This document shows positions 1,148 to 63,735 of a stretch of DNA of 64,000 nucleotides, piece by piece. A model generated the notes under the pieces. The model searched no databases and had not been told where the DNA came from. It worked only from the letters and a program-made list of their open reading frames with translations. The translations under genes and the position numbers were made by a program. Numbering within the stretch: the stretch's first letter is position 1; every line of letters starts with the position of its first letter. This DNA comes from Nannocystis bainbridge. GTDB taxonomy: Bacteria > Myxococcota_A > Polyangia > Nannocystales > Nannocystaceae. The stretch spans positions 320,001 through 384,000 of the forward strand of contig NZ_JAQNDL010000004.1 of NCBI RefSeq assembly GCF_028368995.1, in the 5' to 3' direction.

Positions 1148-1189
1148 CGCGCCCCGCGACATGTCCTTCAAGACATGCATGAACGGACA
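1148..1189. repeat. 14-bp-phased TGTC-N6-GACA array (2-3 units)
   Basis: cgcgccccgcgaca|tgtccttcaagaca|tgcatgaacggaca. Confidence 0.75.
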
Positions 1190-1304
1190 GCCCAAGCTCC
1201 TCAGCCCGCACCCCACGCGCGAAAGCGCAGCCCCCACCCGCACATGCGGGCATGCATTCGCCCTGTAAGCCGCGGGCCCCGGGGCGGCGTTCGCCGGTTC
1301 GACG

Positions 1305-1907
1305 ATGGACACGCGCACCCTGAAGATCTCCCGGCCTTGCCCCATCGAGCTCGACGCCGACCGCAGCGGCCGCCAATTCTTCTGCGATCACTGTCAAAAG
1401 GACGTCCACGTCCTCGCCAACTGGCCCCGCGCCGAGGCCGAGGCGTTCCTGGCCGCCAACCGCGGGCGTTCGGTGTGCGTCTCGCTCCGGCGCGACGCCG
1501 GCGGCGCGCTGCAGTACGCCGATTCGCCGCCGCGAACGCCCCCACCGGCGCTGGTCCCGGTCGCGCGCCTGCGCCGGCGCTGGTTGCCCGAGGCGGCCGC
1601 TGCCGCCGGTGTGGCCGCGGCCCTGAGCGCCTGCACGCCGCACGGGCCGACGAGGCCCGTCGAGAGGCTCGAGCCCGAGGTGGACGTCGTGCTCAGCGTC
1701 GCCGCCGGCGGGGTCAACATTCCCCACGAGATCGCTCCCCCGGCGCCGATGATCCGGGGCGAGCTGGCTCCGGAGCCGCAGATCGAGCGCGGCGAGAAAC
1801 CTGCCATCGAGCCGCCCGCGACCCAGCCCCGTGGCCCCGTGAAGGCGCCGAAGCAGCCGGCGAACGAGCCGGAGCCGCAGACCTTCGACGGCGGCCTCGA
1901 CCTGTGA
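1305..1907 (+). CDS. Hypothetical protein: N-terminal Cys-rich domain, internal lipobox-like LSAC, Pro-rich tail
   Basis: PCPIE...FFCDHCQKDVH...VCV; RRR + AAAAAGVAAALSAC; GC3-rich codon usage. Confidence 0.8.
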   Translation: MDTRTLKISRPCPIELDADRSGRQFFCDHCQKDVHVLANWPRAEAEAFLAANRGRSVCVSLRRDAGGALQYADSPPRTPPPALVPVARLRRRWLPEAAAAAGVAAALSACTPHGPTRPVERLEPEVDVVLSVAAGGVNIPHEIAPPAPMIRGELAPEPQIERGEKPAIEPPATQPRGPVKAPKQPANEPEPQTFDGGLDL

Positions 1908-2228
1908 GCGCAGGCCCCGATCGCATGGGCACCACGGCATCCGCGGGGCACGCGGCGATCGGCAACAGATGCGACATGTCCCGAGAGACATGCGATGGAT
2001 CCGCGCGGCGTCCGGAAGTCGAGACCCCGCGCGAGCACAGCCCCGGGGCCGCCCGATCGCCCGACCGAAGGTCCGCGCCGATCCACGCCTCACGCGGTTC
2101 ACGTGGGCGCTCCGACGCGCGCCCGTCCGCTGCGTAGCGACGCCCCGCGGACGCGGTTCGCGGCTCCACCCGGGCTTGTGGTCGCGCGACGGATTGACAC
2201 GCCGTCTCGAGCCGGCGAAAGCTCGTGC

Positions 2229-2627
2229 ATGGCTTTGCTTCCCGAGACCCGATTGTTCCCGTGCACCGCGTGCCACGAACTGGCGTGCGCCGCCGATCCC
2301 GCCTGCCCGCACTGCGGCACCGCGTGGTCTCCCTCCGAGCGCGCAGGCCGGCTCGCGGCGCTCGCCGCAGCGCTGGCGATGGCGGCCTGCAACCTCAGCG
2401 ACCCGCAGCCGGAGTACGGCAGCCCCGACACGATCACGGAGGGCGGGACCACCGAGACGACGGGCACGGACGCGACGACCACGACGAGCACGACCACGAC
2501 GAGCACGACGAGCACGGACACGACGGACACCGATCCGACGAGCGCGGGCACGACGCCGACCACCGGCACGAGCACGACGAGCGACGGGACCACCGACACG
2601 GACACGACCGACGCGACCGGCCCATAG
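2229..2627 (+). CDS. Putative lipoprotein with N-terminal zinc ribbon and Thr-rich tail
   Basis: ATG 2229; CTACH...CPHCG; LAALAAALAMAAC; PEYG; poly-Thr/Asp tail. Confidence 0.75.
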   Translation: MALLPETRLFPCTACHELACAADPACPHCGTAWSPSERAGRLAALAAALAMAACNLSDPQPEYGSPDTITEGGTTETTGTDATTTTSTTTTSTTSTDTTDTDPTSAGTTPTTGTSTTSDGTTDTDTTDATGP

Positions 2628-2723
2628 CCGTTGCGGGGCCGCGAGCAGCCAATTCGGCGCTGCGCTCGCGGGTGGCCGCGTCGACCGCTTGCACTTTGCG
2701 CGGAACCGGCGACCCTCGGGTGC

Positions 2724-3389
2724 ATGTCCACCCGGATCTTGCTCATCCGCCACGGCGCCACCGTGCTGTCCGCCGAGGACCGCTTCGCCGGCTCGACCGA
2801 CGTCGACCTGTCCGACGAGGGGCGGCGCCAGGCCCGGTGCCTCGGCGAGCGGCTCGCCGATCAGGAACTCGCCGCCGTCTACGCGAGTCCGATGCGGCGC
2901 GCCCACGAGACCGCGACGCTGGTGTCCGCCGCCTGCGGGCGCGAGCCGATCGCCGAGCCCGGCCTGCGAGAGATCGACCACGGCCGCTGGGAGGGGCTCA
3001 CGCGCGCCGAGGTCGAGGCGCGCTTCCCCGCGGAGTACGGCGCCTGGGAGGAGGACCCGTACACCTTCGCGCCCGAGGGCGGCGAGCCGGGCCTGGAGGT
3101 GATGGCCCGCGCGCTGCCTGTCATCCGCCGGATCGTGCTGCAGCACCCCGACCAGACCGTCGCCGTCGTCTCGCACAAGGCGACCATCCGCCTGGTCCTC
3201 TCGAGCCTGCTCGGCATCGACGCCCGCGGCTACCGCGACCGCCTCGACCAAGCGCCTGCGTGCCTCAACATCCTCGAGTTCAAGGACGTCGTGCGCGCCC
3301 GCCTGATGCTCTACAACGACGTCTCGCACTACACCGACTACACCGCCCGCCCGAGCGCGAAGCTCTCGAAGTGGTGGGACCACCCGTGA
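2724..3389 (+). CDS. Histidine phosphatase (phosphoglycerate mutase-like) family protein
   Basis: LIRHGAT, ASPMRRA, LREIDHGRWEG, VVSH motifs. Confidence 0.93.
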   Translation: MSTRILLIRHGATVLSAEDRFAGSTDVDLSDEGRRQARCLGERLADQELAAVYASPMRRAHETATLVSAACGREPIAEPGLREIDHGRWEGLTRAEVEARFPAEYGAWEEDPYTFAPEGGEPGLEVMARALPVIRRIVLQHPDQTVAVVSHKATIRLVLSSLLGIDARGYRDRLDQAPACLNILEFKDVVRARLMLYNDVSHYTDYTARPSAKLSKWWDHP

Positions 3390-3400
3390 GCGCCGCGACC

Positions 3401-3470
3401 TGGTGATACGAGCATGTCCGTGAGGGCATGTGCGATCGGCCATGTCTTGAAGGACATGTCCATTCAGCCT
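3401..3470. repeat. 14-bp-phased palindrome array (4-5 units)
   Basis: tggtgatacgagca|tgtccgtgagggca|tgtgcgatcggcca|tgtcttgaaggaca|tgtcc. Confidence 0.85.
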
Positions 3471-6001: not shown

Positions 6002-6149
6002 GAATCCGCGCAGCGGGGGCGGGTGAGCCTCACGCACCCGCGGATGTCTCTCGGGACAGGTCGGTCCGCAACCTGCGGGCGTCCCGAGTCCCGCAGGGCC
6101 GTACCGGAGTGCGTCTCCAGGTCGGCTGCTCGACGAGGCTCAACCCCAG

Positions 6150-6757: not shown

Positions 6758-7279
6758 TCGATGGCAGGCGAGGGCACCCGGACCCACCACGACCCGCGGC
6801 TGTCCCGAGAGACATACGCGCCACAAACCCAGTCGCCCGGCGACCAGGCAGGGCCATGATGGTCTTCACAGGGCGGGCGAGGGGCGGCGCAGTGGGAGGC
6901 AGCGAGGTCCCCATGCCTCACGCGCAGGCGCGGCGGGCCTCTACGGACACGCCCCGTCGAGTCGATGGCAGGCGAGGGCACCCGGACCCACCACGACCCG
7001 CGGCTATCCCGAGAGACATACGCGCCACAAACCCAGTCGCCCGGTGACAGGCGGGGCCGCGACGGTCTTCACAGGGCGGGCGAGGGGCGGCGCAGCTGAC
7101 TCACCACGACAATCGGCTGTCCCGAGAGACATACGCGCCACGAGCCCCTTTGCGCGGTGACCAGGCGGGGCCACGACGGTCTTCACAGGGTGGGCGAGGG
7201 GCGGCGCAGTGGGACGCAGCGAGGGGCCCCATGCCTCACGCGCAGGCGCGGCGGGTCTCTGCGGACAGGGCCCCGTCGC
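6758..7279. repeat. Intergenic degenerate tandem repeat, 204-bp unit (one full, two partial), each with T(G/A)TCCCGAGAGACA
   Basis: tcgatggcaggcgagggcacccggacccaccacgacccgcggct at 6758 and 6962; third copy about 7102-7279; palindromes at 6801, 7005 and 7118. Confidence 0.9.
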
Positions 7280-7380: not shown

Positions 7381-7510
7381 AGGGACCCGCGACAGGAGCC
7401 GCGCGACGAGACCTGTCCCGAGGGACAGGCGACAGGAGCCGCGCGACGAGACCTGTCCCGAGGGACACGCGACAGGAGCCGCGCGGCGAGACCCCGAGGG
7501 ACGCGCGACG
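7381..7510. repeat. 3 x 40-bp tandem repeat containing TGTCCCGAGGGACA
   Basis: agggac-ngc-gacaggagccgcgcgacgagacctgtcccg at 7381 and 7421, decayed copy at 7461. Confidence 0.9.
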
Positions 7511-14551: not shown

Positions 14552-14593
14552 TGACCGCAGGGACATGCCCGAACGGACATGTCCCTGCGGTAA
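14552..14593. repeat. 14-bp-phased palindrome array (3 units)
   Basis: tgaccgcagggaca|tgcccgaacggaca|tgtccctgcggtaa. Confidence 0.85.
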
Positions 14594-15595: not shown

Positions 15596-15637
15596 TGTCC
15601 TTATGGACATGTACATTGCGACATGTCTTTGGGATCA
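15596..15637. repeat. 14-bp-phased palindrome array (3 units) upstream of the Cys-rich lipoprotein gene
   Basis: tgtccttatggaca|tgtacattgcgaca|tgtctttgggatca. Confidence 0.85.
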
Positions 15638-18912: not shown

Positions 18913-21060
<2,148 letters not shown>

Positions 21061-21335: not shown

Positions 21336-23696
21336 ATGTCTCGCCCTCGTAAACCCGAACGCTCCGCGCCGCGCAAACCCACCCCGAGCCGCCGCGACGA
21401 GACCCGCGGGCCGGCGTCGCGCGAGGCTCCGCCGGTGCCGAGCGTGCCGGGCAGCGAGGCGGACGCGGCAGTGAAGGCGGGAGCGAGCGACGAGCCGCGC
21501 GAGACGACGCCACGCGAGGCTCCGCCGGCGCCGAGCGTGCCGGATCGCGCGGCGGGCGAGGCGAGCGCGACCGACGAGACGCCGGCAGCGGTCGAGGCGG
21601 CCGCGGACGCGGTGACGGGCGAGCGCGGGGCGAGCGCGACGCCTGAACTTCAGGACATGCCCGATCGACCCGGTATCGAAGGTCAGGCGCTTCAAGACAT
21701 GTCGCAAGAGACAGCTGTTTCCGTGGACGCACCGAGCCCGCTGGGCGACCTCGACTATCACCTGCTGGCCGAGGGCACGCACCTGCGGCTGTGGGAGTGC
21801 ATGGGGGCGCGGCTGGCCCCCGGCGGGGAGGGCACGCACTTCGCGGTGTGGGCCCCGAACGCGCGGGCGGTCAGCGTGATCGGCGGGTGGAACGGGTGGG
21901 ACGGCGAGCGCGACCCGCTGCACGCGGCGCGCGGCGGGGTGTGGACCGGGTTCGTGCCGGCGGCCCGGCGCGGGATGCTCTACAAGTTCCGCATCGTCGG
22001 CGCCGACGGGCAGGTCCACGACAAGGCCGACCCGCACGCGCTGATGAGCGAGGTGCCGCCGGCGACGGCGTCGGTGATCTGGGACCACGCGTACGAGTGG
22101 GGCGACGCGAGCTGGCTGGCGCGCCGGGCCGAGCGGCAGGGGCCGTCGGCGCCGATGTCGATCTACGAGGTGCACCTGGGCTCGTGGCTGCGCGGGCCGG
22201 GCGGCGAACACCTGTCGTATCGAGCGATCGCGCCGAAGCTTATCGCCCACGTGCGCGCGCTCGGGTTCACCCACGTCGAGCTGATGCCGCTGACGGAGCA
22301 CCCGTTCTACGGCTCGTGGGGCTACCAGGCGACCGGTTACTTCGCGCCGACGCGCCGCTACGGCGAGCCGCAGGAGCTGATGGCGCTGATCGACGCGCTG
22401 CATCAGGCGGGCATCGGCGTGATCCTCGACTGGGTGCCGGCGCACTTCCCCAACGACGGGCACGGGCTGGTCCACTTCGACGGCACGCACCTTTACGAGC
22501 ACGCCGACCCACGCCGCGGGGTCCACCCGGACTGGAACACGCTGATCTTCAACCTGGCGCGCCACGAGGTGCGGGCGTTCCTCCTCAGCTCGGCGATGAT
22601 GTGGCTGCAGGCGTTCCACGTCGACGGGCTGCGGGTCGACGCGGTGGCGTCGATGCTGTACCTCGACTACTCGCGCAAGGAGGGCCAGTGGCTGCCGAAC
22701 CACCTCGGCGGGCGCGAGAACCTCGAGTCGATCGAGTTCCTGCGCGCGCTCAACCAGGCGATCCACCGCGAGGTGCCAGGGGCGGTCTCGATCGCGGAGG
22801 AGTCGACGGCCTGGCCAGGGGTGTCGCACAGGGTCGAGGACGGCGGGCTCGGGTTCGACTTCAAGTGGGACATGGGCTGGATGCACGACACGCTGCGCTA
22901 CTTCGGGCGCGACCCGGTGACGCGCTCGCAGCACCACCGCGACGTCACGTTCCGCATGATGTACGCGTACTCGGAGCGGTTCATGCTGCCGCTGTCCCAC
23001 GACGAGGTGGTCCACGGCAAGGGCTCGCTGGTCCGTAAGATGTCCCCGGGGACAGGTGGCTCGGCGGCCCGGCTGGCCAATCTGCGCCTGCTCTACGCGT
23101 ACATGTTCGGGCTGCCGGGCAAGAAGCTGCTGTTCATGGGCGACGAGCTGGCCCAGGTGCGCGAGTGGAACCACGACGGGCAGCTCGACTGGGGCCTGCT
23201 GGCCGACGCCGACCACGCGGGGCTGATGCGGTGGGTCGGTCGCCTCGGCCACCTGCTGCGCGCCGAGCCGGGCCTCCACGAGCTCGACCACGACCCGCTG
23301 GGGTTCCGCTGGGCTGTGGTCGAGGACTACCAGCGCAGCACGCTGGCGTTCCTCCGCCGACCGCGGCAAGGCGCGGTGATCCTTGTGATCCTGAACTTCA
23401 CGCCGATGACGTGGACGAACTACACGGTGCCGTTCGAGGCGCCGGGCGAGTGGGTGCGGATGATGTCGTCCGACGAGGGGCAGTTCGGCGGGGCCGGTCA
23501 CGCGGGGCCAGAGCGGCTGATCGCGGACCACTCGGCCGGCGGGGCGCTGCCGTGCGCGGCGACGCTGGACTTGCCGCCGCTGACTGCCCTGATCTACCGC
23601 GGGCCAGAGGTAAAGGCGTACGACGCGGCGGCGCTCGAGCTGCGCGAGGCGCTGGCGGCCGAGGCCGAGGCGGCCCGCACGGACGCGGCGAGCTGA
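21336..23696 (+). CDS. glgB: 1,4-alpha-glucan branching enzyme with a low-complexity N-terminal extension of about 125 aa
   Basis: FAVWAPNA, YEVHLGSW, SWGYQ, DWVPAHF, DGLRVDAVASM, AEES, LSHDEVVHGK. Confidence 0.97.
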   Translation: MSRPRKPERSAPRKPTPSRRDETRGPASREAPPVPSVPGSEADAAVKAGASDEPRETTPREAPPAPSVPDRAAGEASATDETPAAVEAAADAVTGERGASATPELQDMPDRPGIEGQALQDMSQETAVSVDAPSPLGDLDYHLLAEGTHLRLWECMGARLAPGGEGTHFAVWAPNARAVSVIGGWNGWDGERDPLHAARGGVWTGFVPAARRGMLYKFRIVGADGQVHDKADPHALMSEVPPATASVIWDHAYEWGDASWLARRAERQGPSAPMSIYEVHLGSWLRGPGGEHLSYRAIAPKLIAHVRALGFTHVELMPLTEHPFYGSWGYQATGYFAPTRRYGEPQELMALIDALHQAGIGVILDWVPAHFPNDGHGLVHFDGTHLYEHADPRRGVHPDWNTLIFNLARHEVRAFLLSSAMMWLQAFHVDGLRVDAVASMLYLDYSRKEGQWLPNHLGGRENLESIEFLRALNQAIHREVPGAVSIAEESTAWPGVSHRVEDGGLGFDFKWDMGWMHDTLRYFGRDPVTRSQHHRDVTFRMMYAYSERFMLPLSHDEVVHGKGSLVRKMSPGTGGSAARLANLRLLYAYMFGLPGKKLLFMGDELAQVREWNHDGQLDWGLLADADHAGLMRWVGRLGHLLRAEPGLHELDHDPLGFRWAVVEDYQRSTLAFLRRPRQGAVILVILNFTPMTWTNYTVPFEAPGEWVRMMSSDEGQFGGAGHAGPERLIADHSAGGALPCAATLDLPPLTALIYRGPEVKAYDAAALELREALAAEAEAARTDAAS
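21658..21713. repeat. 14-bp-phased array within the predicted glgB 5' extension
   Basis: gaca|tgcccgatcgaccc|ggtatcgaaggtca|ggcgcttcaagaca|tgtcgcaagagaca. Confidence 0.7.
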
Positions 23697-23712: not shown

Positions 23713-23776
23713 GGGTGCATGGGACATGTTCTGAGGGACATGTCCCATGGGGCATTTACACATGTCCTGAGAGACA
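23713..23776. repeat. 14-bp-phased palindrome array (3 units + 8-bp gap + 1 unit)
   Basis: gggtgcatgggaca|tgttctgagggaca|tgtcccatggggca|tttacaca|tgtcctgagagaca. Confidence 0.88.
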
Positions 23777-23970: not shown

Positions 23971-25359
23971 ATGCGCGCCGCTCGTCGTTGCCTCCCGCTC
24001 GCCGCGTTCGTCCTCGCCTGTCAGCCCACGGGCGCCGGGACGGACAGCGACGACGCGACGACGATGAGCCCTTCGACGTCGTTCGGCGGGAGCTTCACGA
24101 CCACCGAGGCGACGCCGACGACAGGGACGGAGACGGGCGCGACGACCAGCTCGAGCGAGGGGAGCTCGGAAGCGGGGACGGAGTCGGAGACTTCGGGGCC
24201 CGACACAGCCACGGGCGAGCCGGGGCTGTCGGAGGACGAGGCGCTGCTTCGTCAGGCGATCGCCGGCGAGGTCGACGCCGAGGAGGCGATGCGCACGATC
24301 GCCGGCCGCGGCGGCTTCCCGGTGGCGGCGGCGTCGGGCGGGTTTCTGTTCGCCTGTCTCTGCGGACAGGGCGCGTGGACGCTGGCCGGCGATCACGACG
24401 ACTGGGCGCCGGCGCCGATGAGCCAGGCGGGGTCGCTGTGGTGGATCGAGGCCGACATCGCCGCGCCGGACGGCAGCCTCTATAAATTTCACGAGCCGGA
24501 CTCGGCGCAGTGGATCGCCGATCCGTACGGGCGCCGCCACGGCTACGACGATTTCGGGACGTTCTCGCTGGTGCGCGCGAGCGCGGCCCACCTCGAGCGC
24601 TGGTATGCGATCGAGGACGCGGGCCTCGGGCTGGCGCCGCGCGAGCTCGAGGTGCTGGTGCCGCAGGACGGGGCGTTCACGCATGCGCTGTACGTGCACG
24701 ACGGGCAGAACCTGTTCGACCCGGGGGCTTTCTTCGGCGGCTGGCAGCTGCCCGCGAGCGCGCCGCCGAACATGCTCGTGGTCGGGATCACCAACACGCC
24801 GGCGCGCATGGACGAGTACACGCAGGTGCCCGACGAGCTCGACGGTCAGCCGATCGGCGGCGACGGGGCGGTCTACGCGGAGCTCGTCGACTCCGTCATC
24901 CGGCCGCGCATGGAGGCGGCGTACGGGCCGGCGGTGAAGGTGGGGACGATGGGCTCGTCGCTCGGGGGGCTCATCAGCCTGGTGATCGCGGACCTGTACC
25001 CGGACCGCTACGACATGGCGATCAGCCTGTCGGGCACGGTCGGCTGGGGCTCGCTCGAGCTGCACAACGAGACGATCCTCGAGACGTACGAGGCCGCAGG
25101 CAAGCGCGGCTTCGCGATCTACGTCGACAGCGGCGGCGAGGGCACGTGCGTCGACGCCGACCAGGACGGGATCGAGGACGACGCGCCCGACTCGTTCGAC
25201 AACTACTGCGAGAACGCGCAGCTCTACGCGATCTTGCAGGCGAGCGGCTACACGCCCGAGGTCGACGTGTTCTACGTGCACGCGCCGGGGGCGATGCATA
25301 ACGAGCTCGAGTGGGCGGCGCGCGTGGGCGTGCCGCTGCAGATCTTCGCAGGGCTGTGA
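23971..25359 (+). CDS. Lipoprotein esterase (alpha/beta hydrolase) with CBM48/glycogen-binding-like domain
   Basis: VLAC lipobox; Thr/Ser linker; LAGDHDDW..PM...W...YKF...WIADP; YVHDGQNLF, GSSLGG, YVDSG, HNELEWAAR. Confidence 0.88.
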   Translation: MRAARRCLPLAAFVLACQPTGAGTDSDDATTMSPSTSFGGSFTTTEATPTTGTETGATTSSSEGSSEAGTESETSGPDTATGEPGLSEDEALLRQAIAGEVDAEEAMRTIAGRGGFPVAAASGGFLFACLCGQGAWTLAGDHDDWAPAPMSQAGSLWWIEADIAAPDGSLYKFHEPDSAQWIADPYGRRHGYDDFGTFSLVRASAAHLERWYAIEDAGLGLAPRELEVLVPQDGAFTHALYVHDGQNLFDPGAFFGGWQLPASAPPNMLVVGITNTPARMDEYTQVPDELDGQPIGGDGAVYAELVDSVIRPRMEAAYGPAVKVGTMGSSLGGLISLVIADLYPDRYDMAISLSGTVGWGSLELHNETILETYEAAGKRGFAIYVDSGGEGTCVDADQDGIEDDAPDSFDNYCENAQLYAILQASGYTPEVDVFYVHAPGAMHNELEWAARVGVPLQIFAGL

Positions 25360-26030: not shown

Positions 26031-26076
26031 TGTCCTCATGGACATGTTCTCATGGACAGCTTTGTAAAGCTGTCCG
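26031..26076. repeat. Two 14-bp units plus overlapping hairpin
   Basis: tgtcctcatggaca|tgttctcatggaca; ggacagcttt-gt-aaagctgtcc hairpin. Confidence 0.8.
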
Positions 26077-31111: not shown

Positions 31112-31137
31112 GCGAGGCCCGTTCGCGGCCCAAAACA

Positions 31138-31168
31138 AAAGGACAGGTCCCTAGGGACCTGTCCTTTC
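31138..31168. terminator. Bidirectional intrinsic terminator-like hairpin built from the 14-bp motif
   Basis: aaaggacaggtcc-ctag-ggacctgtccttt between convergent genes, with A/T-rich flanks. Confidence 0.8.
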
Positions 31169-34264: not shown

Positions 34265-34348
34265 TGAAGCGAGGGACATGTCCCGAGGAGAATGTCCTGG
34301 GGGGCATGTCCCTGAGGACATGCCCGTGCGGACATGTCCCTCAGGTCT
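34265..34348. repeat. 14-bp-phased palindrome array (6 units) between convergent hemA and hemC
   Basis: tgaagcgagggaca|tgtcccgaggagaa|tgtcctggggggca|tgtccctgaggaca|tgcccgtgcggaca|tgtccctcaggtct. Confidence 0.92.
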
Positions 34349-36189: not shown

Positions 36190-36265
36190 TGGCGACAGGG
36201 ACATGTCGCTGAGGACATAAACCGAAGGACATGCCCATACGGGCATGTCCTCGAAAACATGTCCT
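36190..36265. repeat. 14-bp-phased palindrome array (5+ units) between convergent genes
   Basis: tggcgacagggaca|tgtcgctgaggaca|taaaccgaaggaca|tgcccatacgggca|tgtcctcgaaaaca|tgtcc. Confidence 0.9.
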
Positions 36266-37126
36266 TCAGCGCTTGTCGGCCGGCGGGTCTTCGGGGGCGC
36301 CGCCGAGGCGGAACACGATCTCGCCGCGGATCTGGTCGGTCTCGACCCAGCCGATCGCCCGTGAGTCGCAGCAGGCGCCCTCGTCGCGGTTGTCGGCGAC
36401 GAGCAGGTAGCCGTCGGCGGGCATCTCGTAGGGGCCGCCGTCGGCGGGCACGCCCATGCCGGGCCAGGCGTCGGGGCCGGCGGTGCTGGCGAGGACCTGA
36501 TAGCGGCGATCGCCGATGATCTCGAAGGAGGTCGGGCGCCCGTTGGGCACGCCGGGGCCGTCGCCGGGCTTGTGCGCGAGCGGCTCGCCGTTGACGGCGA
36601 GGCCGAGGGCGCCGCGCGGATCGCCGAAGGTGACGGCGTCGCCGGGGAGGGCGAGGATCCGCGCGACCCGCAGGCTGCGCGGCGGCGGTCGCCCGGCGAC
36701 GCCGCTGCGCCGCTGGACCTTCTCCCACTCGTCGTCGAGGCCGAGCTCCTTGGCGTCGACGACGGCGGTGTTGCGCAGGCGATCGCGGGTGCCGGGCACG
36801 CGCGGACGCGCGTCGGGCAGGGGCCGCTCGCCGGGCAGCTCCTGCACGGGCGAGGGCTCGGGCGGCGGCGGCGGCGGCGTGGGGTCGTAGACGACGAGGT
36901 CGCCGCGGTCGAGGCCCCAGGTGCCGCGCACGAACAGGACGTGATCGCCGCTGCGGAGGTTGGGCGCCATGCCGTCGCCGTGGATCTCGACGACGGTGGC
37001 GAAGCTGCAGCGCAGCATCAAGAGAGCGGCGCCACCGACGAGCACGCCCCAGGCGAGCCGCGTCGGCCAGGTGCGATCCGGCGGCGCGGGGTAGTCGTCA
37101 GGCTCTGGTTCGCGGCGAAACAACAT
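36266..37126 (-). CDS. Signal peptidase I (S26) homolog, catalytic Ser and Lys apparently substituted
   Basis: TM anchor; box B IHGDGMAPNLRSGD; RGDLVVY; box D VARILALPGD; box E ADNRDEGACCDSRAIG. Confidence 0.85.
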   Translation of the reverse strand: MLFRREPEPDDYPAPPDRTWPTRLAWGVLVGGAALLMLRCSFATVVEIHGDGMAPNLRSGDHVLFVRGTWGLDRGDLVVYDPTPPPPPPEPSPVQELPGERPLPDARPRVPGTRDRLRNTAVVDAKELGLDDEWEKVQRRSGVAGRPPPRSLRVARILALPGDAVTFGDPRGALGLAVNGEPLAHKPGDGPGVPNGRPTSFEIIGDRRYQVLASTAGPDAWPGMGVPADGGPYEMPADGYLLVADNRDEGACCDSRAIGWVETDQIRGEIVFRLGGAPEDPPADKR

Positions 37127-40995: not shown

Positions 40996-41079
40996 GGAGC
41001 TTCGGGACATGTCGCGCAGGACATGTCCGTTCGGACAATGACGAAGGGACATGCTCTTTCGAGCATGTCCCTTGAGATA
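40996..41079. repeat. 14-bp-phased palindrome array (6 units) between convergent genes
   Basis: ggagcttcgggaca|tgtcgcgcaggaca|tgtccgttcggaca|atgacgaagggaca|tgctctttcgagca|tgtcccttgagata. Confidence 0.92.
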
Positions 41080-41095
41080 GCGACCAGCCCCGGGC

Positions 41096-42192: not shown

Positions 42193-43632
42193 TCAGCCGC
42201 CCGCAGCCGCGGCCGGGACGAAATCCGCCGTGGCTGCAGCAGCTTCGGCCCGGCGCTCGTCGGCCTCCTCCAGCCTGCGCTTCTCCTCCTCGGGGTCGGG
42301 CGGGCCGATCGGCCGCTCCTGAAAGAAGGCCTGATCGGGCGGGAGGCTCGAGTCGCGGACGTGGACGACGACGCTGCGCTCGAGGTCGGCGGGCAGGTAA
42401 CCAGTCCAGCCGGCCGGCAGCGCGGGGGCGACCCACTCGAACAGCCAGCGGGCGTCGAGCGGGGCGAGGTTGACGCAGCCGTGGCTGCGCCGCTTGCCGA
42501 ACTGGTCGTGCCAGTAGGCGCCGTGGAGCGCGTTGTGACCCTGGAAGAGCATGACCCAAGGGACATGTTCGACCATGTACGGGTTGTCCTCGTAGTCCTG
42601 GTTGGCCATGGTCATGCTGGCGACCTTGGCCCAGATCGGGTAGTTGCCCTTCGGGGTCGGCGAACCCTTGCCCGAGCTGACGAGGGTGACGTAGACCGGC
42701 CGCGCGCCGCGGTAGGCGACGAGGACCTGCTCGCCGAGGTCGATGTCGATCCACTGGTCGTCGCCGCTGGCGAGCCGGTTGTCGCGCAGGGCACCTTCGG
42801 GGATCGGCGTGAACACGACCTCGTTGAGGTTCTTGGCCTGGACCCATCGACCCTCGCCGATCTTCCACCAGCGCGCGGGGTCGGCCTCACCTGACTCTTC
42901 GAGCAGGTCGACACGCTCGCGCAGGCCGAGAGTGCCGACCTGGGCGGCCTTGAGATCGGGCTCGGCGAGCACGGGGGTCTTGTCGCGCGAGGACCAGGCG
43001 AAGGCAGGGCCGACGCCGGCGTCGCCGGCGAGGAAGACGCCGCGCCAGGCCGAGCCCTGACCGAGCCAGCCGACCGCGGACTTGCTGACGAGCGCGCCGT
43101 CGACGGTCTCGACGTAGGCGCCGCCGTCGACCTCGAGGGTGCGCGCGACGGCGAGGTTCATGCCCTCGCTCAGGCTGCGCGCGGCGACGCCGGTGCGCAC
43201 GCCGTCGACGCCGCGGTACATGAGGGCGCCGTCCTCGCGGACCTTGGTGTAGTCGAAGGGCAGGCGACGCTCGCCACGCATGCGGTCGGCGAGCGCGTGG
43301 CCGACGGTCGGCTGGTCGCGCGCGGGTTTGACGTGCTCCGAACAGACGTAGCCGAACGGATAGACGGCGTACCACGGCTTGCCCTTGCAGCCGCTGCTGT
43401 CACGGCTGGCGATCTGCCCCCGCACGACCAAACGTGTCCCTTTGGACATGGTGGCGATCCGCTTGCTCGGCGCCCACGGGCGGGTGCGAATGCCGGTCTC
43501 GGGCCAGTGAGTCTCGACGATCGCGGCGGGCGCCGCGTCGACCTTGATGCCCTCGCGCGCCTCGTCCACGGGCTCGAGGCGGCCGAGCGCGGCGAGGGTG
43601 CGGAGGGCGGTCCAGGCGACGAGGAGCTGCAC
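42193..43632 (-). CDS. L,D-transpeptidase (YkuD) family protein
   Basis: WIDIDLGEQVL, VSSG...TPKG, ALHGAYWH...SHGCVNL. Confidence 0.92.
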   Translation of the reverse strand: MQLLVAWTALRTLAALGRLEPVDEAREGIKVDAAPAAIVETHWPETGIRTRPWAPSKRIATMSKGTRLVVRGQIASRDSSGCKGKPWYAVYPFGYVCSEHVKPARDQPTVGHALADRMRGERRLPFDYTKVREDGALMYRGVDGVRTGVAARSLSEGMNLAVARTLEVDGGAYVETVDGALVSKSAVGWLGQGSAWRGVFLAGDAGVGPAFAWSSRDKTPVLAEPDLKAAQVGTLGLRERVDLLEESGEADPARWWKIGEGRWVQAKNLNEVVFTPIPEGALRDNRLASGDDQWIDIDLGEQVLVAYRGARPVYVTLVSSGKGSPTPKGNYPIWAKVASMTMANQDYEDNPYMVEHVPWVMLFQGHNALHGAYWHDQFGKRRSHGCVNLAPLDARWLFEWVAPALPAGWTGYLPADLERSVVVHVRDSSLPPDQAFFQERPIGPPDPEEEKRRLEEADERRAEAAAATADFVPAAAAGG

Positions 43633-52509: not shown

Positions 52510-52579
52510 GTCCCTTCGGGACATGTCTAGGAGAGCATGTCCTTACGCACCTGTCGCTACGGGCATGTCCGAAAGGGAA
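52510..52579. repeat. 14-bp-phased palindrome array (5 units) overlapping the 3' end of the metallophosphoesterase gene
   Basis: gtcccttcgggaca|tgtctaggagagca|tgtccttacgcacc|tgtcgctacgggca|tgtccgaaagggaa. Confidence 0.85.
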
Positions 52580-57252: not shown

Positions 57253-57324
57253 TGTCTCGAGGGACATGTGTGGCGGGCGATCACGATGTGTCTCTCGGGA
57301 CAGGATGAGCTGTCCAAATGGACA
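57253..57324. repeat. Cluster of TGTC-N6-GACA palindromes between convergent genes
   Basis: tgtctcgagggaca 57253; tgtctctcgggaca 57289; tgtccaaatggaca 57311. Confidence 0.85.
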
Positions 57325-58531: not shown

Positions 58532-59425
<894 letters not shown>

Positions 59426-59431
59426 TCGGAC

Positions 59432-60658
59432 ATGTCCATGAAGACACCCCCGGCCTGGCAGCTGGCGCTGTTCGCCCGCCGCTCGCTCGGGGTGATCCGC
59501 GGGCTCGAGGCGGTGCGCGCGGCGTGGGAGGGCCTCGGCGAGCCCGGCAAGGGCGTGCCGGTGGTCCACGTGGTCGGCACCAACGGCAAGGGCTCGACGT
59601 CGGCGATGGTGGCGCACGCGCTGGGGCGCCGCGGTCGACGCGTGGGCCTCTATACGAGCCCGCACTTGCACCGCGTGGGCGAGCGGATCCGGATCGACGG
59701 CGTGCCGCTCGATGACGCCGCGATGGAGCGGTTGGTCGAGCGCGTGCTGCGGCTCGAGGGGCCGGCGCTGCCGCGGCCGCTGACGTTCTTCGAGGTGTTG
59801 ACGGCGGCGGCGCTGCTTGCGTTCGCCGAGGCCGGCGTCGAGACCATGGTCTTGGAGACAGGTCTGGGCGGGCGTCTCGACGCGACCGGGGTAGTGCCGG
59901 CGACGGCCACGCTGATGACGCCGATCGACCTCGACCATCAGATGTACCTCGGCGACACGATCGAGGCGATCGCGGGCGAGAAGGCGGCGGTGATGCGCGA
60001 CGGGGCGCCGGTGTGGTCGGCGCCACAACATCCGGCCGCGGCGGCGGTGCTGCAGGCGTCCGCGATGGAGCACGGGGTGCGGCTGCGGTTCGTCGAGCCG
60101 CTGGTTCGCGCGCCCGAGGGGCTGCCGGGCGCGCACCAGCGGATCAACGGCGCGCTGGCGCTGGCGGGGGCGCGCTTCCTCGATCCGGAGGTGTCGGTGG
60201 GCGACCTCGACGGGGTGCGCTGGCCCGGCCGCTGCGAGCGAGTGACGAGCGGCGGCGGGACGGTGGTGTTCGACGCGGGGCACAATCCGCACGGGCTCGC
60301 GGCGCTGGTGACCTGGCTCGAAGGACAGCCGCATCCGCGGCGGGCGATCGTGTTCGGTTGCCTGGCCGACAAGGACGGGCCGGGGATGGTGGCGCAGCTG
60401 CGTCGCTTGCAGGTTCCGCTGTGGTTGGTGACGCCGGGACCGGGCGGCTACGACCTGGCGTCGCTCGGGGCCGCCGATACGCGGTTGTTCCTGGATGGCA
60501 TGGGCCCCGAGTTCACTGCGGCGTGGCGCGAGCACCTGGCCGCGGGCGGCGAGCTGGTGGTGTGCGGCTCGCACCTGCTGGTGGGGCAGCTGCGCGAGGA
60601 CGTGCTCGGCGAGGTCACCGACGCGCTGCCGCTCACCGATCCGCTGCGCGGCCGCTGA
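59432..60658 (+). CDS. folC: Folylpolyglutamate synthase / dihydrofolate synthase
   Basis: HVVGTNGKGS, TSPHL, ETGLGGRLDAT, WPGR, DAGHN, CGS; follows accD. Confidence 0.93.
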   Translation: MSMKTPPAWQLALFARRSLGVIRGLEAVRAAWEGLGEPGKGVPVVHVVGTNGKGSTSAMVAHALGRRGRRVGLYTSPHLHRVGERIRIDGVPLDDAAMERLVERVLRLEGPALPRPLTFFEVLTAAALLAFAEAGVETMVLETGLGGRLDATGVVPATATLMTPIDLDHQMYLGDTIEAIAGEKAAVMRDGAPVWSAPQHPAAAAVLQASAMEHGVRLRFVEPLVRAPEGLPGAHQRINGALALAGARFLDPEVSVGDLDGVRWPGRCERVTSGGGTVVFDAGHNPHGLAALVTWLEGQPHPRRAIVFGCLADKDGPGMVAQLRRLQVPLWLVTPGPGGYDLASLGAADTRLFLDGMGPEFTAAWREHLAAGGELVVCGSHLLVGQLREDVLGEVTDALPLTDPLRGR

Positions 60659-61535: not shown

Positions 61536-61874
61536 TCACTCGCCGAAGCCGAGGCGGCGGCGGACGCGGGCCGCGAGGTCGCGGGCGCGGCTGGCGGGGC
61601 CGAGGGCGCGGGGAGGCGGGGCGCCGGGGAGGCTGTCCGATGGGACCTGTCGCTTGCGACCTGTCCGAAAGGACGTGGTCGCAAGGGCAGGTGCTTGCAT
61701 GAGCAGCTTGACGAGCGCTGTCACCAGCTCGACCGGGCTGTCGGCGCGGACCTCGAGGCCGACCTTGCCGCCTGGGTCCTCCGCGGCGCCGCGCGCGACC
61801 GTGCGCGTGCCATCGGAGCGGACCTCGATGACGATCCGGCTGACGATCGGGAGATCCTCGTCCGCGCTGCTCAT
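61536..61874 (-). CDS. Hypothetical protein
   Basis: LPIVSRIVIEVRSDGTRTVARGA looks like a conserved N-terminus; the C-terminal part carries a 14-bp array. Confidence 0.7.
   Translation of the reverse strand: MSSADEDLPIVSRIVIEVRSDGTRTVARGAAEDPGGKVGLEVRADSPVELVTALVKLLMQAPALATTSFRTGRKRQVPSDSLPGAPPPRALGPASRARDLAARVRRRLGFGE
61634..61689. repeat. 14-bp-phased array (4 units) inside a CDS
   Basis: tgtccgatgggacc|tgtcgcttgcgacc|tgtccgaaaggacg|tggtcgcaagggca. Confidence 0.85.
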
Positions 61875-61981
61875 GGCGGGAAGCTAGCACGCCGGGCCGG
61901 GGACCGCCGCCGCCACCGGCGCGCGGCCGAGCACCCGGAGCGTGACGTCGAGACGGACGCTGCGAGAGACTGGGCGGCGGG

Positions 61982-62557
61982 TCACTCGCGCGGCGGGAAG
62001 GGCCCCTTGTAGAGGATGTCGCAGCGCACGACGTACTTGCGGCCGGTGGCGACGGCGCGGCCCTGGTGCAGGTGGCGGTGCTGAAACAAGATGCCGAGCC
62101 CGGTGTGGGGGATGACGCTCTGCTCGAGGTGGAGGAAGTGGGTCTCGCCGCCGGTGTAGTCCTCGTTGAGATAGATCATGAAGGTGAGCAGGCTGCGCTC
62201 GTCGTCAGCGCGGACGCAGGCGCCGTCGAAGTGCGGGGCGAAGCGCTCGCCGGGGTCGTAGCGGTAGCAACGGAGCCGCTGGTGGATGCCGAGGACGGTC
62301 ATGCCGGCGATCTGCGGCGGCACCGCGGGCCGGACCCGCTCGAACAGCAGGTCCGCGAGCTCGGGATCGTCGAGGATGACGCGCTTGTTGTCGGTGAGCT
62401 CGGGGCGCAGCACGGGGGCGCGCAACATGGTGACGGGCGCGCGGGCCGGGCCGAGCGACTCGATGCGCTCGATCAGCGCCACGCACTCGCCGGCCGTCAG
62501 CACGTCGTCGACGGTCCAGACCGGCGGGTGTGACAGGTCGAGCGATCGGTGGTACAC
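61982..62557 (-). CDS. 2OG-Fe(II) oxygenase (prolyl-4-hydroxylase-like)
   Basis: RCYRY..GERFAPHFD, TFMIYLNE..GGET, HQG...KYVVRCD. Confidence 0.9.
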   Translation of the reverse strand: MYHRSLDLSHPPVWTVDDVLTAGECVALIERIESLGPARAPVTMLRAPVLRPELTDNKRVILDDPELADLLFERVRPAVPPQIAGMTVLGIHQRLRCYRYDPGERFAPHFDGACVRADDERSLLTFMIYLNEDYTGGETHFLHLEQSVIPHTGLGILFQHRHLHQGRAVATGRKYVVRCDILYKGPFPPRE

Positions 62558-62596
62558 CGCCCCAGGATACGCAAAAGCGCGACCCAGGAGCCTGCC

Positions 62597-63310
62597 GTGA
62601 CCCCACGAACCTTGCTCGCCCTCGCCCTCGCTCTGACCGCCTGTGACGGCGCCAAGCCGCCTGCTGCCGCCGGAACGCCGACCAAGACGCCCGCCGCCGA
62701 CGGCGAGGCGAAGGCCGCCGCCCCGACGCCGGCGCCGACCGCGAACCCGCTCGCCGATCCGGCCGCGGTCGCGGCGATCGGCAAGCCGGCCCCCGACTTC
62801 ACGCTGCCGACCGCCGACGGCAAGACGGTCAAGCTGTCCGACCTGCGCGGCAAGACGGTGGTGATCGAGTGGTTCAACCCCGAGTGCCCGTTCGTCAAGG
62901 CGGCGCACGACGCCGGACCGCTGAAGGATCTGGCGGCGCGCACGACGGCGGCGTCGCCGACGGTGACGTGGCTGGCGATCAACTCCGGCGCGCCGGGCAA
63001 GCAGGGCCACGGCGCGGACGCCAACCAGGCCGCGGCCAAGACGTGGTCGCTGGCCCACCCGATCCTGCTCGACGAGACGGGCGCGGTCGGCCACGCGTAC
63101 GGGGCCACCAACACGCCGCACATGTACATCGTCGACGCCGAGGGCGCGCTGGTCTACCGCGGCGGCCTCGACAACGCGCCGATGAACGAGGCCGAGGGCG
63201 GCACGCGCGTGGCGCTGTTCGAGGACGCGCTGGCGGCCGTGCTGGGCGGCAAGCCGGTCGCGCAGGCCGACACGCGCGCGTGGGGCTGCTCGGTCAAGTA
63301 CGCGAAGTGA
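62597..63310 (+). CDS. Redoxin/thioredoxin-fold lipoprotein (AhpC/TSA-like)
   Basis: LTAC lipobox; APDFTL, EWFNPECPFV, ATNTPHMY, WGCSVKY. Confidence 0.92.
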   Translation: MTPRTLLALALALTACDGAKPPAAAGTPTKTPAADGEAKAAAPTPAPTANPLADPAAVAAIGKPAPDFTLPTADGKTVKLSDLRGKTVVIEWFNPECPFVKAAHDAGPLKDLAARTTAASPTVTWLAINSGAPGKQGHGADANQAAAKTWSLAHPILLDETGAVGHAYGATNTPHMYIVDAEGALVYRGGLDNAPMNEAEGGTRVALFEDALAAVLGGKPVAQADTRAWGCSVKYAK

Positions 63311-63374
63311 GGCGGGCGGCCGCGCACGCGCGCGGCTGTACGTCGAGTCCGCGAACTGAAGCGAGCTGGCGGCC

Positions 63375-63550
63375 GCGCGCCAGCGTGAGCGGGGCGGTCG
63401 CTGCCGGGCGCGCCTGCGGGACGGTCGCTCGCTGTCGGGCCAGCGTGAGCGGGGCGGCCGCTCGCGCTGCCGGGCCAGCGTGAGCGGGACGGTCGCTCGC
63501 TGCCGGGCGCGCCAGCGTGAGCGGGACGGTTGCTCGCTGTCGGGCGCGCC
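63375..63550. repeat. Degenerate intergenic tandem repeat (about 35-bp units)
   Basis: gccagcgtgagcggg(g/a)cgg(t/c)cgctcgctg(c/t)cggg repeated 4-5 times. Confidence 0.8.
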
Positions 63551-63577
63551 GCTGCGAGTCCACGGTCGCGGCAGGGC

Positions 63578-63735
63578 TGTCCTCGAGGACAGGCGCGGGC
63601 CCGCTCGGTGGACGCGACGCGGCTGTCCTCGGGGACATGTTCTTCGCGGCTGCGCCGAGATGGTCGAGGTCCCGGGACGTGGCTCTCAGAGCATGTTCAA
63701 AACGACATGTCTGAAGGGACATGCCCGATCGCGGA
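63578..63735. repeat. TGTC-N6-GACA singles plus a 14-bp-phased array
   Basis: tgtcctcgaggaca 63578; tgtcctcggggaca 63624; tggctctcagagca|tgttcaaaacgaca|tgtctgaagggaca|tgccc from 63680. Confidence 0.85.

Follow-up and report, generated by a model that had tools for sequence, protein, structure and literature searches.

A phased 14-bp palindrome iterated across the genome of Nannocystis

Described repeats and operators closest to the Nannocystis motif

The REP elements of bacteria have roles in gyrase binding, mRNA 3'-end protection and termination. By analogy, these roles may be shared by the arrays considered here, which are built from the 14-base palindrome TGTCC-N4-GGACA in the genome of Nannocystis. 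As with the REP/BIME families of enterobacteria and pseudomonads (associated with RAYT), there are thousands of short palindromic copies within a narrow taxon, and clusters of alternating orientation lie 3' of genes or between convergent genes and are rare in promoter regions. A preliminary description had set REP families aside, which holds for membership, as no Y1/RAYT gene was found in any of the 11 Nannocystis genomes searched, but not for resemblance. The Nannocystis unit differs in being 14 bp long rather than 20–40 bp and in having no GTAG head, its arrays keep a strict 14-bp register with no linkers, its stem covariation is weak, and perfect copies also occur inside genes.

Lattices of another kind are formed by ribbon-helix-helix repressors, with MetJ occupying 8-bp metboxes and the omega repressor 7-bp heptads. 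Their boxes are contiguous, in strict register, direct or inverted, and each takes one dimer that touches its neighbours. They are the closest mechanistic model for a lattice of 7-bp arms, but their few boxes lie at promoters or plasmid centromeres, whereas the Nannocystis arrays are genome-wide, and the MetJ family has no match in this genome. The uptake sequences DUS and USS are asymmetric words, enriched on their own, which have genus-level dialects and occur about once per few kb, both within genes and, as inverted pairs, where genes end. The Nannocystis motif is alike in its restriction to a genus, its frequency and its presence in genes and at gene ends, but arms on their own show no enrichment (0.69- and 1.63-fold).

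The cyanobacterial HIP1 and alternate HIPs are, in the account given in PMC4390886, likewise short palindromes in orders-of-magnitude excess both inside and outside coding sequence; they are spread evenly, are specific to lineages and are conserved more than codons require. HIP1 itself appears in that account as a contiguous 8-mer tied to orphan methyltransferases, whereas the Nannocystis motif has an interrupted 5+4+5 structure, builds phased tandem arrays, is strongly biased to the 3' side of genes, and has no linked methyltransferase that could be found (D12 class). PadR operators, given as ATGT/ACAT with a spacer of 8–10 (PMC3506622), are matched by arrayed units, ATGTCC-N4-GGACAT being also ATGT-N8-ACAT. 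As presented there, however, they are single promoter operators, one per regulon, and differ from the arrays of Nannocystis, which lie mostly 3' of genes. The LuxR-type CviR/CsuR site CTGNCCNNNNGGNCAG has the ideal form CTGTCCGATAGGACAG (PMC12114271), with which CTGTCC-N4-GGACAG agrees except at the centre. That box is treated in the source as a promoter element belonging to a small regulon for quorum sensing, whereas Nannocystis is a genus without a consistent autoinducer-binding receptor, the domain giving only marginal matches in 2 of 11 genomes.

Abundance, phase and conservation

In the window, that is, the whole stretch of 64,000 nucleotides that was analysed, TGTC-N6-GACA has 28 exact matches, compared with a mean of 0.56 (sd 0.81, largest 4) in 100 dinucleotide-preserving shuffles. 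The whole 11-Mb genome has 3,663; intergenic DNA has 2,402 matches where 16–22 were expected, and genes 1,223 where 49.7 were expected. Predicted genes contain 733 copies of TGTCC-N4-GGACA, whereas codon-order shuffles contain 6; for the loop-less junction GGACATGTCC the corresponding counts are 301 and 2.5 (~120-fold). Spacers of N1, N5 and N7 were not enriched in genes, N3 gave only 7 compared with 1.5, and the inner core GTCC-N4-GGAC was merely 1.5-fold above expectation. Isolated units are often extended to CTGTCC-N4-GGACAG (413 in the genome; 207 in genes and 0.5 in shuffles). The motif is evenly distributed on every contig, except that it thins out in stretches of 69% GC, possibly acquired DNA.

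When spacers of k = 0–30 were scanned across the genome, TGTC-Nk-GACA peaked only at k = 6 (the 3,663 above) and k = 20 (984), all other k giving 29–189, and GACA-Nk-TGTC peaked at k = 0 (2,237), 14 (1,305) and 28 (645). Three composition-matched control palindromes had no such peaks. The observation of the preliminary description holds, and its 14-bp phase is genome-wide. In total, 3,419 arrays of 1–8 units were called. Tandem Repeats Finder reported only two arrays in the window as period 14. Neighbouring units do differ in their centres, as had been claimed: in arrays of at least five units, only 7–8% of unit pairs agree at five or more of the six centre bases (3.5% of random pairs), with no dependence on lag. 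Degenerate junctions are slightly more frequent at lag 3 (0.378 vs 0.315), a faint excess that is the one result in favour of a proposed geometry in which 42 bp make 4 turns. Symmetric arm variants co-occur beyond independence (odds ratios 3.6, 3.5 and 2.3 for three symmetric pairs), and certain non-symmetric pairs are likewise high (2.4 and 3.3). Double variants reached 1.3 to 3.8 times the number expected, as worked out by hand from single-variant counts, an excess left unexplained by a dimer whose half-sites act independently.

Another Nannocystis genome (G010) was used for comparisons of synonymous sites and intergenic DNA. For 36 in-gene units, four-fold sites in the motif were identical at 0.900 (n = 70) and others at 0.835 (n = 53,816); for sites in an A/T state the values were 0.786 (n = 28) and 0.312 (n = 1,949), and for those in a G/C state 0.976 and 0.855. 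In-gene motif density was equal across all four gene-score classes (0.132–0.145 per kb). Across 12 orthologous intergenic regions, arms were identical at 0.815 and centres at 0.604, the other intergenic columns having a value of 0.707, and in a six-genome alignment of 40995-41095 the invariant columns were the GGACATG junctions. These comparisons support the earlier suggestion that half-sites and phase are under constraint. Sites are kept at orthologous places in six genomes, and among 196 intergenic regions anchored against G010, units were shared by the two genomes in 78 and missing from both in 101, with 7 regions having them in this genome alone and 10 in G010 alone. By this comparison, unit presence is ancestral and stable. 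Mapping over 73 family genomes placed the strict dimer pattern only in Nannocystis (10 genomes, 1 of 17 genera). Kept by selection and present in thousands of copies, the palindrome is therefore a real genome signal of Nannocystis, and apparently one undescribed so far.

Position of arrays and single units

Genes were called with our own codon-bias caller (7,894 genes, 81.5% of the genome), so the class boundaries are approximate for the densities obtained, which are 2.44 arrays per kb for convergent intergenic DNA, 1.04 for the tandem and 0.39 for the divergent class, with coding sequence at 0.135. At least one array is present in 567 of 1,428 convergent regions and in 179 of 1,454 divergent regions. 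Of the arrays in tandem regions, 777 lie closer to the upstream stop and 346 closer to the downstream start, with 339 of 1,124 within about 30 nt of the stop. Arrays are thus found directly 3' of genes, chiefly between convergent genes, and divergent promoter regions are avoided. This location, missed by the preliminary description, is the strongest positional fact. It points to a role at transcription-unit ends, as for REP/BIME, instead of the generic nucleoid coating first envisaged.

All 14 places on which the preliminary description relied were re-read, and phased head-to-tail units were present at each. The 4-unit array at 3415..3470 begins 25 nt past the stop of a gene ending at 3389; a phased unit also stands directly ahead of it at 3401. 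Convergent intergenic regions contain 6-unit arrays at 34265..34348 and 36190..36273, located 29 nt past stop 34235 and 46 nt past stop 36143, and six phased units (three good, three degenerate) at 40996..41079 fill the convergent region 40995-41095. The degenerate units said to hold the register, taaaccgaaggaca at 36218 and atgacgaagggaca at 41038, are there. GACA|TGTC junctions recur genome-wide, but the four phased units at 61634..61689, also in a convergent region, are joined by the variant GACC|TGTC. Strict phase from 23713 was likewise only partly upheld: about 30 nt past stop 23696 there are two phased units and a third (23727..23776), and this last unit of 23713-23776 is out of phase because it is offset by 8 bp. 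Two-unit arrays with a degenerate unit ahead occur at 1162..1189 (intergenic; degenerate unit at 1148) and 63694..63721 (convergent intergenic; degenerate unit at 63680), a 3-unit array at 15596..15637, and four phased units, three of them degenerate, at 21658..21713. Two degenerate units and a half unit (52510..52542) lie at the end of a convergent intergenic region, and the five other genomes have units as well. The two near-identical units at 26031..26058, again in a convergent region, are evidently a recent duplication.

The 3-unit array at 14552..14593 forms a long palindrome. In four other Nannocystis genomes it immediately follows the stop codon of a small gene, which this genome lacks. 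Here, a compensatory change that affects both sides of the array preserves a 17-pair stem. The element at 31132-31173, between convergent genes, contains a perfect 13-pair hairpin made of motif arms (AAAAGGACAGGTCCC-TA-GGGACCTGTCCTTT, 31136..31168), which is flanked by A and T runs, is conserved in six genomes and looks like a bidirectional terminator.

Single units follow gene ends by 69 nt (1977..1990) and 43 nt (6045..6058). Another (6801..6814) lies in the long convergent intergenic region 6002-7610 and its flanks recur at 7118, where a unit (7118..7131) sits within a 113-bp x2 tandem repeat (6985-7209); two more at 7414..7467 ride on a 40-bp x3.7 tandem repeat (7377-7518) and are spaced by 40 bp, not 14. 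The three single units at 57253, 57289 and 57311 (57253..57324, convergent intergenic) are not 14-bp-phased, two at 63578..63637 are 46 bp apart, and two units at 59419..59446 extend across a gene-to-gene boundary. Inside genes, two units at 20567..20594 (predicted gene 18922-21060) are kept in all four orthologues found, and single units are identical in four orthologues at 24355..24368, kept in five at 35084..35097, and also kept by orthologues at 23041..23054 and 43435..43448.

A proposed reading on duplex DNA and its alternatives

RNA-strand asymmetry is absent: when units in tandem intergenic regions are oriented by the sense strand, G-U-type and C-A-type mismatches come in nearly equal numbers (149/127, 117/93, 230/227 and 284/293), and loop dinucleotides are symmetric. 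Among the in-gene junction palindromes, 167 of 301 stand without a phased arm on either side, and such a palindrome is no useful hairpin because the loop is absent. Given the sense-strand symmetry and the loop-less junctions in genes, the motif acts like a signal carried by duplex DNA. It is an interrupted palindrome, TGTCCyy|rrGGACA, which is iterated at high frequency, is confined to one genus and is most probably recognised on double-stranded DNA by a putative symmetric protein. Our tentative preference, to which we would give slightly less than an even chance, is that the arrays are a lattice of sites for this candidate protein, expanded in the manner of REP/BIME at transcription-unit ends. 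The recognised entity would be two adjacent 7-bp arms, inverted, with both polarities counting (TGTCC-N4-GGACA and GGACA|TGTCC), so that successive arms would line up as a lattice in which two-fold axes recur every 7 bp and dimer sites every 14 bp. Single sites scattered in genes are held by selection at synonymous positions; downstream of stops, mostly between convergent genes, 14-bp duplications would give arrays of two to eight units or more, because nothing constrains length there. The arms remain fixed while the 4–6 central bases drift freely.

The co-occurring DNA-binding gene that had been anticipated did not emerge, RAYT, PadR and MetJ all being absent here, and that no binding protein was identified among the families searched speaks against the lattice. 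PadR is ruled against as the reader by its absence from this genome and a second one (G001), both array carriers; it is present in only 4 of the 10 other Nannocystis genomes. A search for the omega repressor gave no match in this genome, nor in any control genome, and so was uninformative. In Actinobacteria, five loci have the same GACATGTC boxes as Nannocystis, three copies each at 14-bp spacing, and in the two loci examined for genes these adjoin a PadR gene; triple boxes lie between the PadR gene (PF03551, E 4.8e-14) and a divergent RPE65 oxygenase gene, which is consistent with proteins reading such geometry. A pure duplex-DNA reader alone does not predict the six-fold convergent-over-divergent bias, and the co-occurrence of symmetric variants, the stable single-strand folds and the 14552 compensatory change also weigh against it.

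These last points belong to a REP-like alternative, which we consider unlikely, in which the arrays would work as hairpins of single-stranded DNA or RNA at transcript 3' ends, terminating transcription or shielding it from 3' exonucleases, and the arm sequence would be conserved only through descent from one propagating family. It would suit arrays that crowd stop codons and fill convergent spacers, the 31136-31168 hairpin with its A and T runs, the single compensatory double change at 14552 and the symmetric variants (odds ratios 2.3–3.6). Folds predicted for arrays as single strands are very stable (z −3.5 to −7.0; 0–2 of 200 shuffles as stable), and 18.4% of arrays of at least three units have at least 80% long-range centre complementarity, compared with 10.9% in the null. 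Yet long-range palindromy accounts for only about 8% more arrays than the null, extended palindromes being a minority, and the perfect units and loop-less junctions within genes are under selection there. The sense strand does not favour G-U-type mismatches, centre pairs equal the expectation from their marginals, isolated units have flanks with no excess of complementarity, the position profile reveals no T run after units, and RAYT transposase was not found in the 11 genomes. Units within an array are barely more alike than units of different arrays, which argues against recent propagation.

Self-maintenance of the HIP1 kind appears slightly less likely still. Here a biased repair, methylation-linked or template-switch process would convert near-matches to matches, which slippage would expand where selection allows, with no dedicated structural or regulatory role. 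Such a process would accommodate the huge over-representation in both genes and spacers, the even spread with its dips in 69%-GC stretches, conservation in excess of codon needs and the identical neighbouring units of certain arrays (e.g., 26031-26058). Quasipalindrome template switching would yield symmetric double variants, of which there is an excess. Elhai's proposal of methylation-dependent mismatch repair as the maker of HIPs, as set out in PMC4390886, is a further point in its favour. However, no genus-specific methyltransferase was found in the D12 class, which is shared by 9 of 10 Nannocystis genomes and 21 of 24 genomes from elsewhere in the family, and a conversion drive leaves the strict 14-bp lattice, the six-fold spacer preference and the drifting centres unexplained. 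Chance, or an ordinary microsatellite from slippage of a 14-bp unit, has near-identical neighbours in a few arrays to its credit but is refuted by the counts in window, intergenic DNA and genes, by centres that mostly differ within an array and by sites kept at orthologous places in six genomes, and its probability is negligible.

With a lattice of duplex-DNA sites for a symmetric protein as the preferred reading, protein-loaded arrays would punctuate the ends of transcription units in Nannocystis, like REP/BIME in enterobacteria, and could hold back or absorb the supercoiling that transcription drives, or else prevent read-through.

A 14-bp register across the genome

The source assembly comprises 11.05 Mb at 71.5% G+C in five contigs and is 90.5% complete, with the window occupying positions 320001-384000 of contig C4. 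One protein of 701 residues encoded in the window shares 93-96% identity with proteins from Nannocystis exedens, N. pusilla, N. punicea and N. radixulma. Within the window TGTC-N6-GACA occurs 28 times, against a mean of 0.56 and a largest value of 4 in 100 dinucleotide shuffles, and the genome as a whole holds 3,663 copies. The preliminary description had proposed plotting the distances between sites. With spacers of k=0-30, TGTC-Nk-GACA peaked in the genome only at k=6 (3,663) and k=20 (984), and GACA-Nk-TGTC reached its maxima at k=0 (2,237), 14 (1,305) and 28 (645). In the same scan three control palindromes of equal composition gave no comparable peaks, so the 14-bp register is a property of the whole genome. 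Phased units were present at all 14 of the places first cited, with minor corrections, and the observation of phased palindrome arrays was confirmed and extended.

The unit has the consensus TGTCCyy|rrGGACA. In an unbiased sample of units, taken as the N14 between GACA and TGTC (n=1,305), the junction bases TG and CA are found at 0.89-0.95 and the inner arm bases at 0.5-0.7, with T or C at position 3 and A or G at position 12. Arrays were called by lengthening exact seeds in 14-bp steps for as long as a step matched 7 or more of the 10 arm bases, which has a background probability of 0.0044. The 3,419 arrays called in this way comprise 2,032 of one unit, 731 of two, 309 of three, 108 of four, 124 of five, 85 of six, 24 of seven and 6 of eight.

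The arrays are not a slippage microsatellite. Neighbouring units are not near-identical, as 7.0% of adjacent pairs share at least five of six centre bases compared with 3.5% of random pairs, and Tandem Repeats Finder reported a period of 14 for only two of the window arrays. Likeness between units of one array is barely above that between arrays and does not change with lag; a few arrays do have identical adjacent units, e.g., at 26031-26058. The 42-bp super-period suggested earlier did not hold up, since unit identity shows no preference for lag 3, with degenerate junctions recurring there slightly more often (0.378 vs 0.315).

The conservation of arrays was followed through the 64-kb window in five genomes and through about 455 kb in one, the Nannocystis genome G010. 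The window is collinear in five other Nannocystis genomes at a nucleotide identity of ~90-91.5%, and identity at four-fold sites is 0.80-0.84. Spacers of the window that bear units bear them in the other genomes too, and spacers free of units are also free of them there. Among 196 anchored spacers compared with G010 over the ~455 kb, 78 had units in both genomes, 7 in the present genome alone, 10 in G010 alone and 101 in neither. In 12 alignable spacers the arms were identical at 0.815 of positions, the centres at 0.604 and the remaining intergenic columns at 0.707, and in a six-genome alignment of 40995-41095 the GGACATG junctions form invariant columns. Our reading of these comparisons is that the arrays probably grew by duplication of the 14-bp unit and are old, their arms held by selection while the centres drift.

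An unusually long convergent spacer of 1.6 kb at 6002-7610, with no gene called inside, contains a 113-bp repeat in two copies (6985-7209) and a 40-bp tandem repeat in 3.7 copies (7377-7518); both carry the 14-bp unit, and larger duplications can thus spread it as well. At 34338-34542 there is a 67-bp tandem repeat in 3.0 copies with 90% matches, which begins within the last unit of the array at 34265 and enters minus-strand gene 34477-35475 at its 3' end. The interval 14153-14608 is ~250 bp longer in four other Nannocystis genomes, where the extra sequence reads as a small membrane-protein-like gene that stops just before the array; this gene appears to have been deleted or to have decayed in the present genome. 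An Rfam search of the window gave no match besides two tRNA genes, which lie on the minus strand at 50203-50366.

Transcription-unit ends and selection within genes

Genes were called with our own codon-bias caller, and the resulting 7,894 genes take up 81.5% of the genome. On this basis intergenic DNA contains 2,402 exact units and genes contain 1,223, with another 38 lying across a boundary. The density of arrays is 2.44 per kb in convergent intergenic DNA, 1.04 in tandem and 0.39 in divergent intergenic DNA, and 0.135 in coding DNA. Arrays occur in 567 of the 1,428 convergent spacers (40%), as against 790 of the 4,348 tandem and 179 of the 1,454 divergent ones. In tandem spacers the median distance from an array to the upstream stop codon is 77 nt, 339 of 1,124 arrays lie no more than about 30 nt from that stop, and the stop is the nearer landmark for 777 arrays and the next start for 346. 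When ten translations from the neighbours of the 17 divergent-spacer arrays of at least three units were inspected by eye, no obvious DNA-binding protein was seen among them.

Density is even along the contigs and averages 33 units per 100 kb, and this evenness over all five contigs rules out restriction to a macrodomain. Unit density drops to 4-10 per 100 kb in stretches of 69% G+C. On contig C1 of the present genome, 100-kb bins with just 4-7 units lie at ~1.1-1.3 Mb (69% G+C, near-zero GC skew) and at ~0.5-0.6 Mb (71% G+C, skew of ~ -0.04); these unit-poor bins may represent acquired islands, or else very long genes that leave few spacers.

Enrichment of TGTC-N6-GACA is about 126-fold in intergenic DNA and ~25-fold inside genes, where 1,223 copies compare with 49.7 +/- 7.6 after shuffling codon order in all predicted genes; in-gene density is equal across four classes of gene score (0.132-0.145 per kb). 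In-gene counts against codon shuffles are 1,157 vs 793 for GTCC-N4-GGAC, 733 vs 6 (122-fold) for TGTCC-N4-GGACA with its 10 specified bases, 207 vs 0.5 for CTGTCC-N4-GGACAG and 301 vs 2.5 for the junction GGACATGTCC. No phased arm flanks 167 of those 301 junction palindromes on either side. Among the spacer variants in genes, N1, N5 and N7 were not enriched over codon shuffles, and N3 was slightly so (7 vs 1.5).

Conservation inside genes was measured for 36 units against the syntenic 472 kb of G010. Four-fold sites were identical to G010 at 0.900 of motif positions (n=70) and 0.835 elsewhere (n=53,816). For A/T states the values were 0.786 (n=28) and 0.312 (n=1,949), and for G/C states 0.976 and 0.855, the former contrast being the more telling in a genome that disfavours A/T states. 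Four-fold identity is higher at motif positions, and the motif is therefore kept at the nucleotide level in genes. As judged from these alignments, clear purifying selection acts on the motif, synonymous sites included.

Duplex or hairpin, and candidate reader proteins

A motif of this symmetry could instead act as a hairpin in single strands. Folding of the arrays as single strands is very stable (z -3.5 to -7.0), yet pairing at centre positions is no commoner than the marginals predict, flank complementarity of isolated units does not go beyond expectation, and extended palindromes occur in only about 8% more arrays than in the null. Array 14552 has one compensatory change, and symmetric variants of the arms occur together more often than by chance (odds ratios 3.6, 3.5 and 2.3), as do two non-symmetric pairs (2.4 and 3.3). 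Sense-oriented units do not prefer G-U-type over C-A-type mismatches, and their loops show no asymmetry. The junction palindrome, which has no loop, is enriched in genes to the same degree as the unit. We infer that it is the sequence of the arms that is read, on duplex DNA, and quasipalindrome template switching may account for the modest excess of symmetry.

The element at 31136-31168, a conserved perfect hairpin with A and T runs, qualifies as an intrinsic terminator (a G+C-rich hairpin followed by a T run), whereas the arrays in general do not; the position profile has no T run after units, and a scan of 30000-45000 found five terminator-like sites against 2.8 in shuffles, just one of them within an array. 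A long hairpin is rejected by centre complementarity across the unit (1.90 of 6, against 1.77 with partners shuffled) and by a best-axis test (0.594 vs 0.566).

Several protein families were searched for a reader of the duplex motif. RAYT/IS200 Y1 transposases (PF01797) were found in 0 of 11 Nannocystis genomes, with 17 of 41 relatives positive and a control recovering 6 of 14 known genomes, and a REP/BIME system with a cognate transposase of this kind was rejected for the genus. PadR (PF03551) had no match in the 11-Mb present genome or in the complete 13.2-Mb Nannocystis genome G001, all 14 reference genomes being positive in the control search, and it is sporadic in the genus, with matches in 4 of 10 other Nannocystis genomes; the best hit of a tblastn search with an actinobacterial PadR query had E = 1.1. 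A profile search for MetJ (PF01340) gave no match in the present genome, and one for the omega repressor (PF07764) gave none in a search that was also positive in no control genome and so carries no weight. Autoinducer-binding domains (PF03472) matched marginally in 2 of 11 Nannocystis genomes, which is not consistent enough in the genus for a LuxR-type AHL receptor as the reader. In public RNA data, seven metagenome runs contained 5-15% of the sampled words, no pure culture being among them.

The dimer TGTC-N6-GACATGTC-N6-GACA is present in 10 of 41 relatives, namely the present genome and nine of ten other Nannocystis genomes, the one without it being 64% complete; none of 30 genomes from other genera has it. 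For a stricter dimer the count was 10 of 73 genomes in the family, belonging to 1 of 17 genera. In a scan of genomes of all species for triplets of GACATGTC boxes spaced 14 bp apart, most of the 40 stretches listed came from Nannocystis or from a MAG titled Nannocystaceae bacterium (72 dimers), and the rest of those listed fell into two groups, five actinobacterial loci and four Rhodobacteraceae genomes. The actinobacterial loci (L156:2872-2907, L124:7610-7645, L128, L129 and L135) hold three boxes at exact 14-bp spacing, and a PadR-family gene adjoins them in both loci examined for genes. In L156 the boxes lie between a divergent PadR gene (PF03551, E 4.8e-14) and a gene for an RPE65-type carotenoid oxygenase, which the second neighbour in L124 resembles by eye; such triple boxes look like an operator. 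The Rhodobacteraceae genomes (G041-G044; Roseovarius, Sulfitobacter and one other) have 3-15 dimers each, whose centres, such as TGTCAAATTTGACA, are A+T-rich. In these genomes (loci L121, L123, L139, L143, L145, L147, L150, L151 and L154) the boxes are in spacers beside genes that by eye are putative enolase and NADH dehydrogenase subunit genes, the enolase neighbour being read in two Sulfitobacter genomes, and they may be the regulon of a putative global regulator. Both groups therefore use the box elsewhere, at low copy number and with the 14-bp spacing, as apparent operators.

Known repeat systems and the meaning of the arrays

Judged by the defining features of each family, the element does not belong with REP/RAYT, PadR operators, lux boxes, uptake sequences or terminators, and probably not with HIP1. 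Its placement is most like that of REP/BIME, and its genome-wide maintenance most like that of HIP1. REP sequences are imperfect palindromes of ~20-40 nt with a stem kept by compensatory change and a conserved GTAG-type head, whereas the unit here is 14 bp, its profile has no GTAG-type head and covariation is absent or modest. The likeness to REP/BIME lies in the clustering of arrays 3' of genes and between convergent genes (2.44 per kb vs 0.39 in divergent spacers), but REP/BIME elements are extragenic, and here the 1,223 units in predicted genes are equally dense in high-confidence genes. As with HIP, the palindrome is over-represented in coding and non-coding DNA alike. A HIP also has its own orphan methyltransferase that recognises the core; here the D12 methyltransferases (PF02086), the sole class searched for this comparison, are present family-wide and are not genus-specific. 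A DNA uptake sequence has an asymmetric core that is enriched alone, whereas in the genes of this genome GGACA alone stands at 0.69-fold and TGTCC alone at 1.63-fold of its codon-shuffle count.

Both MetJ and the omega repressor provide examples of lattices built from contiguous boxes. In the present genome 652 copies of ATGTCC-N4-GGACAT share the ATGT-N8-10-ACAT form of PadR operators and 413 copies match the LuxR-type (CviR) box CTGNCCNNNNGGNCAG. That box stands upstream of regulated promoters in company with an AHL receptor, whereas the sites here are mostly 3' of or inside genes. The published PadR operator is ATGT/ACAT with a spacer of 8-10 (PMC3506622) and the CviR/CsuR box is CTGNCCNNNNGGNCAG, with the ideal site CTGTCCGATAGGACAG (PMC12114271), which shows that helix-turn-helix dimers can read such sequences. 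A survey of titles and abstract openings, with subscription journals and supplements outside its scope, gave no description of the palindrome element among the papers listed.

The cooperative protein lattice put forward in the preliminary description is plausible from the sequence, in that it fits the symmetry, the selection and the precedent, although no reader was found in the families searched. It must also be joined to the strong association with transcription-unit ends, which had been overlooked. We tentatively propose, as a possibility rather than a probability, that a sequence-specific chromosome protein polymerises on the lattice of 7-bp arms, with thousands of sites punctuating the ends of transcription units and single sites kept in genes.

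The purpose of short dispersed palindromes such as REP and HIP1 is still debated, decades on, and Nannocystis offers a fresh and very clean case of the problem. Its pattern of 10 bases is fully specified, the 14-bp lattice is exact, purifying selection extends to synonymous sites, and a sharp positional rule places arrays just past stop codons and in 40% of convergent spacers, all confined to a single genus that can be cultured, for which several near-complete genomes exist and whose close relatives lack the motif. Together these properties make the reader findable by pull-down or phylogenetic profiling, and the function testable by deletion of single arrays. On the practical side, standard tandem-repeat finders overlook the arrays, and those annotating natural-product clusters in Nannocystis can expect arrays at the end of almost every operon. 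If the proposal is true, the arrays would correspond to REP/BIME without RAYT but with a defined protein that reads them, and Nannocystis would possess a sequence-encoded insulation of adjacent, especially convergent, transcription units, whether topological or by a block to read-through.
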